DNA from: a phage
Sequence record: PZ445536.1
Length of the DNA stretch: 64,000 nucleotides
Direction: 5' to 3' (one strand)
In this document: in pieces, positions 1,092-45,668 of the stretch
Layout of the letters: the number at the start of each line of letters is the position of its first letter
How positions within the stretch are numbered: position 1 is the first letter of the stretch
Position numbers and translations under genes: made by a program
Notes under the pieces: generated by a model
Seen by the model: the letters and a program-made list of their open reading frames with translations, nothing else
Database searches by the model: none
What the model was told of the DNA's origin: nothing

Positions 1092-1287
1092 TATAAATTC
1101 TCTTTTAAATGAAAATGCAGGACTTATTGACATTGCCTGCGCAAGCCCTCAAGGGGAACATAGGTTTTTGGATATTTAACGACCAGGATAACCATAAACC
1201 TCGTCAACATTCAAGAGGTACACCGTAAAACAAAGTTCGACGGCTCCTCGTTTTAACTTCACACTAAGGCAGTGACTCTCCAATAAA

Positions 1288-1536
1288 TTATTTCAGTGTT
1301 ACCACAAAGTGACGAACTGCTTTTCGTGCAGCAGAAGCCAGAGGCTTAGCATACTTAAGTTCATCTTTTTCCTGAAGCTCAGCAGCTAATGCAGTTTGAG
1401 CAGGATTCAGATGTTTGAAATAACGCAGGATTTCAAGAGCTTCGGCTTCAACATCAATAGATGCGCCATAGTTTTCGTGACCATTATTCCATGCGTTTCG
1501 TTGCAGTTCAAGAGCGTGTTGTAATTGTTTAATCAT
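1288..1536 (-). CDS. rIII: rIII lysis-inhibition accessory protein (82 aa)
   Basis: 82-aa ORF matching recalled T4 RIII in sequence, length and position next to gene 31. Confidence 0.85.
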   Translation of the reverse strand: MIKQLQHALELQRNAWNNGHENYGASIDVEAEALEILRYFKHLNPAQTALAAELQEKDELKYAKPLASAARKAVRHFVVTLK

Positions 1537-1683
1537 TTAAAAATTCTCGTTAGAGATTAAAACTCGGTAGTCACGTTCTTCTGAATTTCATCTTCTTTCG
1601 ACAGATCTCTCAGTTGTAGACTACCACATAGAATTGTTCGGTTAACTTATTATTCCGACACCCAATTCATATTATTATTTATA

Positions 1684-2019
1684 TCACTTATAAAGACACG
1701 GAATAGCTTTATAGTGACAGGTAACGAATTTTTGTTTAATTTCTTTTGGCTTCTTAAGACCCAGAGCTACAAAAGGATGCGGAACATTTCGAATTTGACC
1801 AACTGGAAGAGAAGTCAAATCACCAACTTCGCAGAAACCTTCAGGAACATCAGGACCAACAGAGTGAACTACACACAGTTCAGGAACTTCACCTTGAACA
1901 CGTTTACCGATAATAAGTCCTGATTCTGTAACTTCTTCATCACCGGCTTGTGCAGGTTCAGAAACTAAAATAACATATTCACCGACAGCACGAATTGGTA
2001 GCTGTTGTACTTCAGACAT
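1684..2019 (-). CDS. 31: gp31 co-chaperonin (GroES-like, capsid folding)
   Basis: 111-aa ORF starting [19 protein letters not shown], matches T4 gp31 length and sequence from memory. Confidence 0.9.
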
Positions 2020-38021: not shown

Positions 38022-40199
38022 TTAGGCCGCAAGGGCCTTCATAGTTTTAGCGATTTGGGAAACTTCATCATCACTTAAAGAGTTGCGATAACCGATGAAG
38101 TCGGAAACAATACGGAATTTCTTGGTAAACTCAGCAACCATTTTATCACTATTTTTTGAAGCATTACGTGATAATTCATCAAAAAGATTAGTTACCGTCC
38201 AGATGTCATGACCGATGGTATCTTTTCCACCATTAAAATATACACCGCGCAATGAACTAACTATATTAGCGAGTCGTGTATATTCTTCAGAAACTTCATC
38301 TGTACTGAAGTACTTCATCATAAAATCTAGTTCAGGATACTTGATAATTTTATCAATATATCGTTGAGCTGAACTTGAATAACCTACATACTTATCATAA
38401 TCTACATCATCAAAAGCATCTACATATAAATCACGCAAAGCTTCAAAAATACATTGGCACTGACCGAGTTCTTTTACCTTTTTCTGTAAAAGCGGACGAA
38501 TAACATAAAATTCATTAATGCCAATAAGATTAGCCATACGAATCAAAATATTCATAGATGGATGACAAAGTGATGTAGTACCATCCATAGAGAAAATATC
38601 AGAACGATGCATATACGCTACATAACCAGTAATTTCATCTGCTTCTGACGTAAGTGTAAATAATTCCTCTTTTTCCCAACGCCCATCTTTAATTTCAAAC
38701 TTAAATGCTGTAGCAGCTTTAGGACGAGGAGCTTTACTTTTAACTACCTTTGGAATATAGCTTTTAACTAAAGCTTCAATTTCTGACAAATAATGAATGT
38801 TAACTTCATCACTTTCAAACATTGCCATAATATCAGGTAGTAAATCAATCTGCGATTCTACTTCCGGATTAATAAACAGAAGACGCTCATTGTGATGAAT
38901 ATTTAAAGTGTTATTAAATTCACTATCATCTAGCGCATGTGCTAATCCACGGACAATATTAACACGATTTTTAATATTATCAATAACGATATTAATTTTT
39001 GTTGTATTAATACCAAACAGACGATAACTTGACGCAACGACTGATGTTTCATGACTTTGCTTAATGCGCTTCAGTCGAGGGTCAAGATTTACTTCATACA
39101 CAACTCCTGCATTACATAACTTACTGTCAGGTTCAAACATGCTCTGCATTTTCTTATATGACAGATTTTTAGTCGTGAATTTGACTGAATTACTAATCAT
39201 ATAATCTCGAGCAGAATACCCCATCTTCATCAATTCACGATATGTGTGACGAGGAGATGTAGATTCTTTAAATCGTTTTACATCTTCATTAAATGCTTTC
39301 TCACTAAGCTCTTTAACTCGTTCAATAATATTTTTACGAGTGCGATCATCTAATGAAAGAGCTTCACGTGATGGAGCAATATCAAGTGAACCCATTGGAA
39401 ATTTAATGTAATTCACTTCATTACGAATGCTTAGCCAGTTACGGTCTCTAATAACACCATCGATAGGATAAACAATACCACCATAGATAGCATATAATCC
39501 ACCACGATCAGGCCAGTATCTTTCTGGATTTACACCGTAATAGTCATCAAAATCCGGAAAATAATCAATTTCGCGGTCAAGACCATTAATGATAGCCAAA
39601 TCTTTGAACGGTCGCATGATATAAGAAACTTCATAAGCAAAGTTTCTAAAGTCTTTTTCTTCAACTGGAACTACGATTTCAATACCAGTTTTATCATCTG
39701 GACCCATTTCTTTCACGAATGTAGGTTTAATTTGTGGACCATCGCCATCCATGTAAGCTACATAACCACGAATTTCACCTTTATGATACGAAGTAATACT
39801 AAACGTATCAGTATAACTAAACGGAGATTTAGAACCTAAACCAAATCCGCCAATAAAGTCATTAGATTCAGCCTTAGATAAACTGAAGTATGAATTATAC
39901 AAACCAGGAGAATTATCATCACCCTGAATATCAAAATCACTCATACCCGGACCAAAATCTCGGCAAACAAATCGTGGATCTAAACGTCCAGGAACTTGAA
40001 TGATAAATTTTTCAGGATTTCCATTGAGAGCATGGGCATCAATCATGTTGGTAATCAATTCACGGACTACTGCGCGAATTTTGTTTGTATACAAATCAGA
40101 TGACAGAATTTTAAATACTTTAGGATTTGCTGCGATGCTAAATGCTTTTGATTTAGAACCATTGCCAAGAATAGTTTCTTTTTCAGTGGTGATAATCAT
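38022..40199 (-). CDS. rIIA: rIIA (membrane-associated GHKL-type ATPase-like protein)
   Basis: 725 aa (T4 RIIA length); N-terminal ATPase-like motifs; rIIA-rIIB junction TAATAAGGAAAATTATG. Confidence 0.92.
38024..38038 (-). other. stem-loop AGGCC-GCAAG-GGCCU at 3' end of rIIA coding sequence, just upstream of rIIB RBS
   Basis: Read from sequence. Confidence 0.35.
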
Positions 40200-40209
40200 A
40201 ATTTCCTCA

Positions 40210-40413
40210 TTAATTCATATTGCGTTTAATAACTTCAGCAACTTCTAGTAGTTCATCTTTAGTTGCAGTGTCGGATTGAATTTTATCTCTAATATCTTTA
40301 AAGCGGTTTTTAAATTCTTCGGCTTCTCCCATATCGAAAAAGCGTTGAATGATTCTATATTCTCGATGAACTGCTTTATCAAAAAGTTCTAAATTTACTC
40401 TATATGATTTCAT
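40210..40413 (-). CDS. hypothetical protein (rIIA.1-like, 67 aa)
   Basis: ORF immediately upstream of rIIA; early promoter at 40439-40468. Confidence 0.6.
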
Positions 40414-40438: not shown

Positions 40439-40468
40439 ATTATACCACATCCTTGTGGTAAAGTAAAC
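40439..40468 (-). promoter_or_regulatory. T4-type early promoter (GTTTAC, 18 bp, TATAAT)
   Basis: rc gtaaac 40463-40468 overlapping gene 39 stop; rc attata 40439-40444. Confidence 0.6.
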
Positions 40469-42285
40469 TACTGGCTCATCCATTCTTTACGAAGGTCAGC
40501 ATTATCTCCCATGAGCATTTCAAAAAGCTCTTTCCAATTCTCAGGAAGTTTAACAACATCATATACTGGATTTTGAATCATCTCACGATATTCAGATTTT
40601 TCCAAAGAGCCAAGTCCTTTAATATAACGGATGCTATGTTTAGGTAGAGCATCTTTGGCACTCTCATATTCAGCGACTGTATAAAACCATTCTTGTTTTT
40701 TACCGACCTGAGCGATGATTACAGGAGTTTTGACGAAGCGAATTCGTCCTTGCTCAAACAATTCTGGCCAATTACTAAAAAATCCGAGCAGAGAAGGATA
40801 AATGCTTCCTAGACCATCATGGTCAGCATCAGTCATAATAGCAATATTGCGATAATTCAAGTTTTCAGCTTTTTCACCAAGAACTAATCCAGTGATTGCG
40901 CAAATATCAAATAGCTCTTTGTTTTTAAGCATATCTGCATAAGACATACCCCAACTGTTGAGAACTTTACCGCGCAATGGATAACCACCATGAAGTTCTT
41001 TATCACGAACATCAATAAGATATCCGATAGCCGAATCACCCTCAGTCAAGAAAAGAGTAGTATCAGCATCTTTACCACAAAGATTCGCTTTGATATGTTT
41101 ATGAACCTTAGCTTTAGAAGCCTTTTTAGCTGCTTTAGTTTCTGCTGCTTTTTCTGCCGCCAATTTACGAGCCAAAGCAGCTTCGATAATCGGCATTAGA
41201 ATTGCTTCATTATTTAGAATAGCGCGTGAAATCTTTTTAGCATCAAGCTGAATATGACTACGAATTTCGCCAAATGGAGAAGTCAAACGCTCTTTAGTTT
41301 GAGAATCAAATCGCATGTTTTTCATATCACGGACAAACATAACGATAGTCAAACATTCTTTAACGCGTGCTTTAGTCACATCAATTTTGAACTTACGTTT
41401 GATTTGTGGAATAAGGTCTTCACAAATATCATCCATAACACAGTCAATGTGATGGCCACCATTCTTAGTATGAATGTTATTGACGTATGTTAATTGACGA
41501 AAACCATCCGGTGAACGACCAACCGCAATAGAACAATTTTCTTGTTCTTGAACGATAGCATGCTCATCATATTGGCGTGCATATTTCTTAAAATTGCCCT
41601 GAACCTTTTTACCATTAAAGGTAAATTGAATATCAGGATAAACTACTGCAAGTGTCTGGAGACGATCTAGTGTAATGTCAAGATAAACCTGAGATAGCTC
41701 ATTAGTTTCAAATGACATAAAATCAGGAATGAAAGTAACACTGGTTCCTTTCCATTTTCCAGGAATAGTTTCCCAGGATTTATTTTCCATGCCATTTGAA
41801 CAACGAACTACAATATTATTTTGACCATCGCCAGTTTCACCGACAAACATCACAGAAAAAATGTTAGTTAAACTAGAACCAACACCATTCATACCACCGG
41901 TGACGCGTTCTTTATCATCACCAAAGTTACCACCTGCTTTTGGAATAGTCCATGCAGCAACAGGACCAGGAATTTCTTCACCGGTAGGTGTTTTAACCAT
42001 CGCTTGTGGAATACCGCGACCGTTATCTTCAACTGTTACTTGATTGTTTTTAATAGTAACATTAATTTTATTTGCGAATTTAAACTTAGTACGAATACCT
42101 TCATCTACTGAGTTATCGATAATTTCATCAATAAGCTTAACAAGACCAGGTACATACTGAACACTTTCCCATTTACCAAACAGAAAGCGCTCATGCATTT
42201 CATTAGCTGAAGAGCCAATGTACATGCCGCTACGCTTTTTGATATGTTCAATATCGCTCAGAATTTTAATTTCATTCTTAATCAT
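40468..42285 (-). CDS. 39: gp39 topoisomerase II large subunit (GyrB-like), uninterrupted 39+60-type ORF
   Basis: 605 aa from ATG at 42285; GHKL ATPase and Toprim features; no split into genes 39 and 60. Confidence 0.9.
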   Translation of the reverse strand: MIKNEIKILSDIEHIKKRSGMYIGSSANEMHERFLFGKWESVQYVPGLVKLIDEIIDNSVDEGIRTKFKFANKINVTIKNNQVTVEDNGRGIPQAMVKTPTGEEIPGPVAAWTIPKAGGNFGDDKERVTGGMNGVGSSLTNIFSVMFVGETGDGQNNIVVRCSNGMENKSWETIPGKWKGTSVTFIPDFMSFETNELSQVYLDITLDRLQTLAVVYPDIQFTFNGKKVQGNFKKYARQYDEHAIVQEQENCSIAVGRSPDGFRQLTYVNNIHTKNGGHHIDCVMDDICEDLIPQIKRKFKIDVTKARVKECLTIVMFVRDMKNMRFDSQTKERLTSPFGEIRSHIQLDAKKISRAILNNEAILMPIIEAALARKLAAEKAAETKAAKKASKAKVHKHIKANLCGKDADTTLFLTEGDSAIGYLIDVRDKELHGGYPLRGKVLNSWGMSYADMLKNKELFDICAITGLVLGEKAENLNYRNIAIMTDADHDGLGSIYPSLLGFFSNWPELFEQGRIRFVKTPVIIAQVGKKQEWFYTVAEYESAKDALPKHSIRYIKGLGSLEKSEYREMIQNPVYDVVKLPENWKELFEMLMGDNADLRKEWMSQ

Positions 42286-42312
42286 CACTTATCCTCGTTT
42301 GGTTTCGGGAAT

Positions 42313-42354: not shown

Positions 42355-42624
42355 TTATTTAAAACGAATAGTTGAATCCTTAAAGAACAGCCCAGAACAT
42401 ACTGTTCCTTCTACTTTCTGCCCGGTAGGTCCAATAGCACGAAATCCAGTATGTTGGAAATCATTTTCAGAGCAACCGAACCAGTTATATCCAGTGATTT
42501 CAATATTAGTAAAACCGCTTGAAGATAAAACTTTGGTTGCATTATCAGCATCAGTACATCCTACTAAAGATACTGCTAATACTAATGCTGCAATAGAACG
42601 ATTAATATATTTCATAATTTTCAC
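42355..42624 (-). CDS. putative lipoprotein (89 aa)
   Basis: Signal peptide with lipobox LVGC. Confidence 0.6.
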   Translation of the reverse strand: MKIMKYINRSIAALVLAVSLVGCTDADNATKVLSSSGFTNIEITGYNWFGCSENDFQHTGFRAIGPTGQKVEGTVCSGLFFKDSTIRFK

Positions 42625-42992
42625 TTAAATTTAATGGCTTGAAGAAGACTAATAATTCTCAAACGGCTTCTTTCATCTTTAACTGTAAAAGAAAGAGGGT
42701 CACCAGATTTCATAGTAATAGTACATTCAAAATCAAAATCTTCGGGAACTTCTTCGAATAGGTCAAATTCTTCATCATAAATTAGAACATTACTCTGAAA
42801 ACTGTGAAGAATTTTTCCATCATTTCCAGATGCTGTACTAATCATTGTAACATTATTACCTTTCATATCTTCAACGATAAATTCGCTTGTAGATATTACA
42901 TTACTAATAGAACCATTCCTATAAATAGCAGAAAATAGATATTTCTTTTCTTCGCCTTCGCGAATACGATACTTCTTACCGATTTTAAACAT
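42621..42992 (-). CDS. hypothetical protein (123 aa)
   Basis: ORF in 39-dexA variable region. Confidence 0.6.
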   Translation of the reverse strand: MFKIGKKYRIREGEEKKYLFSAIYRNGSISNVISTSEFIVEDMKGNNVTMISTASGNDGKILHSFQSNVLIYDEEFDLFEEVPEDFDFECTITMKSGDPLSFTVKDERSRLRIISLLQAIKFK

Positions 42993-42994
42993 AA

Positions 42995-43171
42995 TTACCC
43001 TTTAAGTAAGTCGTAAAAACCGCCATTCACATGCTTAGGAGCAGAAGGCCGACGAGTAGACAGACGATGACATTTAGGGCAAACATCATTTTCTCGTTCA
43101 GAAATCTTTTTAATTTTTTCATATTCATGCCCGCAATCTTCGGATTGGCATTTATAATCATACATTGGCAT
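42995..43171 (-). CDS. small zinc-ribbon protein (FmdB-like, 58 aa)
   Basis: Hand translation MPMYDYKCQSEDCGHEYEKI...CPKCH: two CxxC pairs and MPxYxYxC N-terminus typical of FmdB-family zinc ribbons. Confidence 0.5.
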   Translation of the reverse strand: MPMYDYKCQSEDCGHEYEKIKKISERENDVCPKCHRLSTRRPSAPKHVNGGFYDLLKG

Positions 43172-43173
43172 AA

Positions 43174-43593
43174 TTATTCCTTAAAATGTGCTTTCAACAT
43201 CTGATACAAGGACCATGCGTGTTCATTATTTTCAATAGTAACTTTCATTACCGGGAATTCTGTGAAATCTTCTATCTGTTCTTGCTCTTCCTGCTTTTGC
43301 TCTTCGGACGCTTGATATGGATTTCCAACTTCGTCAAAGAACTCTGCTTCATTCGTAGAGAGCCAGATAAAGTTTTCGTCAAGGATATCAGCGCCGGCAC
43401 AACGTTTGAGTACACCCGTGGATGTCACAATTTTAGTAGGACGACTGAGATGGTCAACATCTAAAATTTTAAAAGGTTCCATACCTAAACGTCGTGCATA
43501 GATTCCGTTATCAGTATGGTCTTTAATAAAAGCTTCCTGAGCTTGTTTATTTTTAAATTGATACCATTTATTAACTTCAAATCTAATAGCCAT
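43174..43593 (-). CDS. hypothetical protein (139 aa)
   Basis: ORF with acidic [10 protein letters not shown] tract. Confidence 0.6.
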
Positions 43594-43808
43594 TAATAAA
43601 TTTCCTTCCAGTAAGTTGTACCGTCTTCAGTGATTTCACGGAATACACCATAAATCGGTTGTTTATCACCAACCTTTTCATACACATAAACCGAAGTCAA
43701 GTGAGTAAACTTGATGGTGTGTTCCTTTTGAACTACTACCAAATCTGGATCGAATAATACATCTTCAAATTCGTCATTAGTACAATTCTGAACAATTTTA
43801 CGTTTCAT
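43593..43808 (-). CDS. hypothetical protein (71 aa)
   Basis: ORF, start overlaps upstream gene stop. Confidence 0.55.
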
Positions 43809-44198: not shown

Positions 44199-44618
44199 TT
44201 ATGCTAAAGCTGCTTCGCACCATTTTTTAATTTGGAATTCAGGAACTACCATGAACTGGCCTGCAAAAACAATATTGTAGAGCTTGACACCATCTTCTAC
44301 CCAACGGTCCGAAATAAAACCAGCGACTTGATTCGTTGTCCATGGAGTTCCATCTGTTGCCGCCGCAATTGTGAATTTATGGTCTTTTACAACTAAAACT
44401 GAAGAACAAAGTTTCCATTTAAATGCGCTTTCTTCTGGCTCAATGAACTGACTTGAGACATAACCAATGTTACCATCAGCGTCACGAACTTTAACCTCGT
44501 TACGACCAAAAACTGGATCACTTACAGAAAGAACTTCAACCAGCTTTCCTGCAACTTTAGAACGAGAAGCAACGGATACATATACGTAATCACCAGTAGA
44601 GAGATTTACAATATTCAT
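44199..44618 (-). CDS. hypothetical protein, tandem paralog A (139 aa)
   Basis: Shares N-terminal SVASRSKVAGKLVEV and C-terminal GFISDRWVEDGVKLYNIVFAGQF motifs with the next two ORFs. Confidence 0.6.
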   Translation of the reverse strand: MNIVNLSTGDYVYVSVASRSKVAGKLVEVLSVSDPVFGRNEVKVRDADGNIGYVSSQFIEPEESAFKWKLCSSVLVVKDHKFTIAAATDGTPWTTNQVAGFISDRWVEDGVKLYNIVFAGQFMVVPEFQIKKWCEAALA

Positions 44619-44627
44619 AATAATTCC

Positions 44628-45101
44628 TTAAGCTTTACGAGGAGAAGCATAACGAGTGATTTCAGATTCTTCAACAACCCGGAAGTCACCTAAGAATACG
44701 ATATTGTAGAGCTTTTCACCATCTTCAACCCATTGGTCTGTGATGAAGCCACACATCCTATCAGTTTTACTTGGACCAGCGAAATCATCAATATAATCGA
44801 ATTCTTCATCAGTTACAAATTCAACGCCTTTACACAACGCCCATTTAAATTGTGCATTAGACTCAGTGGATTCAACTTCTTCAACAGAAGCAAAATGAGA
44901 GCTAACACGAGTTTCCAGAAATTTAGGACTTACGTAAGCGTACTGAGTTTCAGTTTTTCCAGAACTAGGAATGATTCGAACTTTAACTTCTATAACACGA
45001 CCAGTACCATTAGTACGAAGTCCTACCACTTCAACTAGACGACCTGCAGCTTTAGAACGAGATGCAGACGATACACGCTTAATTTCACCGATAGTAATCA
45101 T
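44628..45101 (-). CDS. hypothetical protein, tandem paralog B (157 aa)
   Basis: SSASRSKAAGRLVEV ... GFITDQWVEDGEKLYNIVFLGDF. Confidence 0.6.
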   Translation of the reverse strand: MITIGEIKRVSSASRSKAAGRLVEVVGLRTNGTGRVIEVKVRIIPSSGKTETQYAYVSPKFLETRVSSHFASVEEVESTESNAQFKWALCKGVEFVTDEEFDYIDDFAGPSKTDRMCGFITDQWVEDGEKLYNIVFLGDFRVVEESEITRYASPRKA

Positions 45102-45173: not shown

Positions 45174-45668
45174 TTAATTAAGGATATTAATTACTGCACT
45201 GCGTGGAACTACACTAAAATCACCTGCATGAACAACGTTCAGAAGTTCAACACCATCTTCAAGCCACTGGTCAGTTACCCAACCACTTACTGGACCAGCA
45301 AATGGTCGACGAATTGAAACAGCTTTACACAACAAGTCAGTAGGCTCGATAGGCTTAACCAGAGTACCGTACATACAAGCGATATCCATATCAATACAGA
45401 TGTCTTTAACGGGTTCTACTTCTTCAATCAACAGTTCAAAGTCGGTGCTTGGAAGGGCGGTAGTAGAAATTGTACCGTATGAATTTTTAATTTCTAAGAA
45501 TAACCAAGGGCCTTCAGCTTGTTTGATGAAGTTAACAATAGTGAAACTATTACCTTGAGTGGCGCCTAAAATTTCACAAAACTTTTCATAAGCTCGCACT
45601 GAAGCACCATACCAGTTGATTTGTTTTTCGTCTTTCAGGATGTAAGTAGCTGTAGTACTGATATTCAT
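45174..45668 (-). CDS. hypothetical protein, tandem paralog C (164 aa)
   Basis: Divergent N-terminus but shared C-terminal GWVTDQWLEDGVELLNVVHAGDF motif. Confidence 0.6.
   Translation of the reverse strand: MNISTTATYILKDEKQINWYGASVRAYEKFCEILGATQGNSFTIVNFIKQAEGPWLFLEIKNSYGTISTTALPSTDFELLIEEVEPVKDICIDMDIACMYGTLVKPIEPTDLLCKAVSIRRPFAGPVSGWVTDQWLEDGVELLNVVHAGDFSVVPRSAVINILN

Follow-up and report, generated by a model that had tools for sequence, protein, structure and literature searches.

The 58-codon open reading frame (ORF) at 42995..43171, on the minus strand of a 64,000-nucleotide stretch of phage DNA (sequence record PZ445536.1; the whole stretch is herein referred to as the window), is, judged from its sequence and genomic position, the ortholog of T4 gene 39.2 (NwgI), and it very probably encodes, in a Tequatrovirus, an early zinc-ribbon protein that acts on host GroEL. 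The comparisons described below show its orthology, its coding status and its fold family. The gene is already known and named; it is an ordinary accessory gene of the T-even phages and nothing about it is new. The initial annotation of this DNA described an unannotated FmdB-like mini-protein and did not recognize T4 39.2 in it, so no novelty follows from that description. Indeed, the gene is unannotated only in the ORF track of that first stage, whereas hundreds of public genomes annotate it (as 39.2, as zinc ribbon protein or as FmdB-like regulator).

The window belongs to Tequatrovirus and shares 97.7% nucleotide identity with Escherichia phage vB_Eco_Solly and the slur02 group. Its gene order in this region runs, entirely on the minus strand, from a cef-position ORF (43593..43808) and a goF-position ORF (43174..43593) through the 58-codon ORF, an ORF of 123 amino acids (42621..42992), 39.1 (42355..42624), an unsplit topoisomerase gene 39 (40468..42288) and rIIA.1 (40210..40413) to rIIA (38022..40199). 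Because this is the order of T4 apart from the 123-amino acid ORF, the 58-codon ORF is placed at gene 39.2, immediately after the goF-position ORF and ahead of 39.1 and gene 39, the arrangement seen in T4. Its product (MPMYDYKCQSEDCGHEYEKIKKISERENDVCPKCHRLSTRRPSAPKHVNGGFYDLLKG, the translation of 42995..43171) aligns without gaps to the 58-amino acid Gp39.2 of re-sequenced T4, with 47 of 58 residues identical (81%; E=5e-37), and shares 91% identity with RB69 ORF006c and 47% with the RB49 copy. The 39.2 slot is kept in Mosigvirus, Dhakavirus, Tegunavirus and Krischvirus; Certrevirus carries more distant copies, in another gene context.

In the ORF listing of the window the frame extends from ATG to TAA at the positions first reported, on the minus strand, a point absent from the initial annotation. 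The tight packing between flanking ORFs that had been noted there is borne out by gaps of 2 nt on either side: the stop codon of the goF-position ORF (43174..43176) is followed, after 2 nt, by the ATG of 39.2, and between the TAA of 39.2 and the ATG of the ORF that follows (42992) there are likewise 2 nt. A Shine-Dalgarno-like AAGGA (43178..43182, minus strand), read from the sequence 6 nt 5' of the 39.2 ATG, overlaps the final codons of the goF-position ORF and is a candidate ribosome binding site that would permit translational coupling with that ORF. A promoter and terminator scan found no terminator between goF and 39.2; it found more promoter-like sites in shuffled sequence than in the real sequence and is uninformative.

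The length of the ORF is no evidence for a gene, given the 57 ORFs, each 30 amino acids or longer, that overlap the surrounding 6 kb. The abundance of ORFs of like length, the shortness of this one and the fact that Gp39.2 went undetected in T4 proteomics (a search that used an erroneous 45-amino acid reference, for a protein that is very small) are the points in favor of a chance ORF in AT-rich DNA, a reading to which we assign practically no probability. It is contradicted by purifying selection that is specific to one frame: Nei-Gojobori estimates from four pairwise comparisons of the window 39.2 with its orthologs in T4, fPS-90, UTI-E2 and Bp7 give a dN/dS of 0.10-0.12 in the 39.2 frame, with a dS of ~1.0-1.4, whereas the two alternative frames give dN/dS values of 1.2-2.0. 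Codon position 3 takes 21-24 of the 36-41 nucleotide differences in these comparisons, and three of the four cysteine codons show synonymous TGC/TGT changes relative to T4. Homologs were found by tblastn in 886 phage records, in 852 of which they are nearly full length; a word-indexed protein search with Gp39.2 returned 7 clusters only, all near-identical or fragments. The profile matches given below exceed curated cutoffs, and the T4 ortholog has a genetic function according to the passages of PMC5153855 that concern it. Taken at the sequence level, the profile matches, the 886 records, the dN/dS values and the cysteine codons already refute the idea of a chance ORF.

The 39.2 ORF is a real gene. 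The initial annotation had held its packing to be consistent with this, and the view is now upheld by purifying selection, by cysteines that are kept through synonymous codon changes and by synteny in five Straboviridae genera. Loss of the ORF or of its cysteines in related phages had been named as evidence that would speak against it; we examined both, and both are clearly conserved. Two overlapping ORFs, at 43031..43204 on the plus strand and at 43027..43161 on the minus strand, were also considered as genes and were rejected on account of the dN/dS above 1 in the alternative frames.

Profile searches place Gp39.2 in the FmdB family. The protein matches PF09723 Zn_ribbon_8 of Pfam (E=6.7e-12; 45.7 bits vs. 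a gathering cutoff of 34.4) and TIGR02605 "FmdB family zinc ribbon protein" of NCBIfam (44.9 bits vs. a cutoff of 31.3), and its best PHROG is 1076, "FmdB-like"; with both curated thresholds passed and the PHROG matched, the profile HMM search confirms the family originally proposed from a MPxYxYxC...CxxC signature. That signature is present, with one correction: the N-terminus, MPMYDYKC, fits MPxYxYxC and the second knuckle is C-x2-C (C31, C34), but the first is C-x4-C (C8, C13) and not C-x2-C, a variant found also in other FmdB-family members. We took MPxYxYxC together with two cysteine pairs ~17-20 residues apart as the mark of the family, and Gp39.2 carries both. Its zinc-ribbon core (43070..43150, minus strand) contains four putative zinc ligands on the same strand, namely Cys8 (43148..43150), Cys13 (43133..43135), Cys31 (43079..43081) and Cys34 (43070..43072). 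The four cysteines are invariant among Tevenvirinae copies, and in an alignment of 57 family sequences the cysteine and N-terminal motif columns show conservation of at least 90%; Krischvirus copies are without C13 and have one extra cysteine, and Certrevirus copies show a CxxC...CxC pattern.

The AlphaFold2 model built with the 57-sequence alignment reached an overall pLDDT of 76.9, as compared with 48.5 for a 5-sequence alignment, which was unusable. Residues 1-40 of the model (pLDDT ~83) form four short beta-strands, as expected of a zinc ribbon, and residues 41-58 form an extended tail that is predicted with lower confidence (pLDDT 61-65). The profile matches, the conservation and this model suggest that Gp39.2 folds as a zinc ribbon, and it putatively binds zinc. 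Single-sequence and profile searches of the PDB gave no significant solved relative, Foldseek against the PDB returned generic zinc ribbons only, none of them significant (best E=0.44), and the PADLOC defence models gave no meaningful match.

The most conserved segment of Gp39.2 is its C-terminal tail, SAPKHVNGGFYDLLKG (residues 43-58; 42998..43045, minus strand), which is by virtue of its conservation a candidate interaction motif. The Tequatrovirus, Mosigvirus and Dhakavirus copies agree throughout residues 43-56 (SAPKHVNGGFYDLL) and vary only in the last two residues; tail codons 43-57 show four synonymous and no nonsynonymous differences from T4, and the ribbon body, in contrast to the fixed tail, differs between alleles at as many as 12 positions. 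This tail is one version of a motif widespread in the FmdB family, SAPxxxFKGSGWYxTDY; an exhaustive representative search identified the motif in 66 of the 145 short relatives, and a tail of this type is present in many IMG/VR viral copies. We speculate that the conserved tail could be a contact element for GroEL. A much broader proposal, that this tail (SAPxxxNGGFYD) docks onto GroEL and that cellular FmdB-family proteins are general modulators of chaperonins mislabelled as transcriptional regulators, seems to us distinctly improbable. At the three bacterial FmdB-family loci that were checked no groES or groEL neighbors were found; the neighbors were DUF502 and aspartyl-tRNA synthetase at one locus, D-Tyr-tRNA deacylase at another and an NTP-transferase with TsaD at the third, a result that with only three loci (n=3) is weakly negative for a family-wide link to chaperonins.

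The function of the gene is known from T4. As related in passages of PMC5153855 and PMC4396842, which report the work of Ang and Georgopoulos (2012; Genetics 190:989), T4 Gp39.2 (NwgI) moves host GroEL toward an open, co-chaperonin-accepting state, and this open state binds both host and phage co-chaperonins; T4 lacking 39.2 fails to grow on particular groEL mutants, and the effect on GroEL was reported from genetics and biochemistry alike. The same passages agree with the guess of the initial annotation that such a small zinc ribbon would act on a host enzyme, inasmuch as the T4 ortholog modulates host GroEL (PMC5153855, PMC4396842). The T4 39.2 transcript is of the early class. We ascribe a probable GroEL role to the window ORF on the strength of the identity of its product to T4 Gp39.2 (81%) and to the RB69 copy (91%). 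The RB69 39.2 is reported to be the one that the GroEL selection recovered first, and the RB69, RB43 and RB49 homologs reportedly behave alike; over-production of 39.2 is reportedly lethal to the host.

On the account that we hold very probable, Gp39.2 would be expressed early within the tightly packed cef-goF-39.2 run, as the T4 transcript class and the gene spacing suggest, and would combine a four-cysteine zinc ribbon (residues 1-40) with an extended, invariant tail (residues 43-58), as indicated by the profiles, the conservation and the model. It would then push host GroEL toward an open conformation, ready to take up host GroES or phage Gp31 as co-chaperonin, and would thus aid the GroEL-dependent folding of phage proteins where the host GroEL/GroES alleles serve the phage poorly. 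For T4, the key client of GroEL is the major capsid protein. The window also encodes a gene 31 ortholog (1684..2019, minus strand), a Cpn10/GroES-like co-chaperonin of 111 amino acids (Pfam Cpn10; E=4.1e-07; 30.4 bits vs. a cutoff of 21.1) that serves host GroEL as its phage-encoded partner, a context that is consistent with a GroEL role of 39.2.

Two other accounts of the protein deserve consideration. Gp39.2, though a genuine small protein, might in nature act chiefly on a host protein other than GroEL, with the effects on GroEL arising from over-expression. The GroEL phenotypes came from a selection with plasmid-expressed protein, the reported lethality of over-production would accord with another target, and a zinc-ribbon body that varies at 11 positions beside a fixed tail fits adaptation to a variable partner. 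We nevertheless judge this account unlikely, given that no result here indicates another target and that the T4 39.2 deletion was blocked on specific groEL mutants at natural expression levels, as stated in the part of PMC5153855 devoted to it. Still less probable, and in our estimate very improbable, is a transcriptional regulator that uses its zinc ribbon to bind DNA or RNA polymerase. PHROG 1076 and many RefSeq records do carry the label "FmdB-like transcriptional regulator", and the weak fold neighbors of Gp39.2 include the RNA polymerase binders RbpA and archaeal RNAP subunit P, at E-values of 0.4 or worse; but the label derives from the name of the family, the fold matches are nonsignificant, Pfam and NCBIfam recognize only a 40-residue zinc ribbon and no DNA-binding domain, and the only experimental work cited on the T4 ortholog, recounted in the relevant passages of PMC5153855 and PMC4396842, points to GroEL.

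A literature search on FmdB zinc-ribbon function turned up one unrelated paper and no study of what any protein of the family does; within this very large family, T4 Gp39.2 may be alone in having a function that has been tested. The regulator label is one that has been widely propagated, for which we found no functional support and which conflicts with the GroEL experiments, and phage Gp39.2 gives the uncharacterized FmdB family one experimentally anchored member. For the window itself the consequence is small, as this is a well-conserved, named gene with a function that is already published.

The T4 reference annotation calls for caution in such comparisons. The T4 RefSeq record NC_000866 (5398..5839, compared with 1262..1701 of MT984581) gives 39.2 as 45 amino acids and 39.1 as 65 amino acids, and the T4 DNA downstream of the 45-amino acid product, read in another frame, encodes ...PKHGNNGFYDLLKG. 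Compared with this old reference, the re-sequenced T4 isolates (T4T, KJ477684-6, MT984581 and others) all show a divergence of ~4% over a 341-bp stretch and encode a 58-amino acid Gp39.2 and an 86-amino acid 39.1; a length of 58 amino acids for T4 Gp39.2 also appears in the passages of PMC5153855 on this protein, in agreement with the re-sequenced T4. By this comparison of sequences, the RefSeq 39.2 and 39.1 products owe their truncation to indels in M89919, a sequence of the 1992 era, and the truncated 45-amino acid entry can mislead proteomics and homology work. Additionally, deposits of Shigella phage vB_SsoM_113 and Salmonella phage Manna contain a 47-amino acid product that shifts to an overlapping frame after the CP of the second knuckle; these products are probably assembly frameshifts, because tblastn matches those records in two pieces.

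Several observations concern the neighboring genes. The 123-amino acid ORF (42621..42992, minus strand) is present in UTI-E2-type Tequatroviruses and absent from T4 and fPS-90. Both this ORF and the goF-position ORF (43174..43593) match PHROG 622, and no similarity between the two was detected by pairwise BLASTP; the 123-amino acid ORF may be a very divergent goF-family paralog gained by insertion. The 39.1 ortholog (42355..42624, minus strand) begins ...MKYINRSIAALVLAVSLVGC and resembles a lipoprotein signal peptide with a lipobox, and its true start is probably an internal ATG that would give 86 amino acids, as in re-sequenced T4. The topoisomerase II large subunit (40468..42288, minus strand) is one unsplit ORF of 606 amino acids with a GTG start as listed, whereas T4 has the gene 60 split, the 50-nt bypass and a mobA remnant, which the window gene 39 is without. 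Farther upstream, three consecutive minus-strand ORFs (44199..44618, 44628..45101 and 45174..45668) have in common the C-terminal motif D(Q/R)WVEDG.KLYN(I/V)V..G.F.VV, from which we take them to be tandem paralogs in the motB region.

The 39.2 allele of the window is nearer to that of the Mosigvirus RB69 (91% amino acid identity) than to that of T4 (81% amino acid and 79.7% nucleotide identity), and its aligned flanks are nearer to T4, at 88.7% nucleotide identity over a 900-bp block that includes 39.2 and 97.8% in the 39.1 region. Two 39.2 allele classes thus occur among Tequatroviruses, and an RB69-like 39.2 amid T4-like flanks suggests local recombination.

In comparison with known systems, the closest functional reference is T4 Gp39.2, which likewise has 58 amino acids and the same four cysteines, whose last 16 residues are identical to those of the window protein and whose gene occupies the same slot in the same type of genome, one that also carries the gene 31 co-chaperonin. 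The window protein differs from it by 11 substitutions in 58 residues, all within residues 3-42 and including positions 11, 14, 15, 27, 28, 33 and 38-42, and the window has the 123-amino acid ORF between 39.2 and 39.1, which T4 does not. RB69 ORF006c (Mosigvirus) is the closest named reference allele, with 91% identity and the same neighbors; it has 59 amino acids, ends in KKG where the window protein ends in KG and carries 4 further substitutions. The cellular FmdB family (PF09723; TIGR02605, CxxC_CxxC_SSSS) shares with the window protein its small size, the MPxYxYxC motif, two cysteine knuckles and a glycine-aromatic tail after SAP. Its first knuckle is C-x2-C, whereas that of the window Gp39.2 is C-x4-C, and its tail reads KGSGWYxTDY, whereas that of the window protein reads NGGFYD and is without the Ser/Gly-rich extension.
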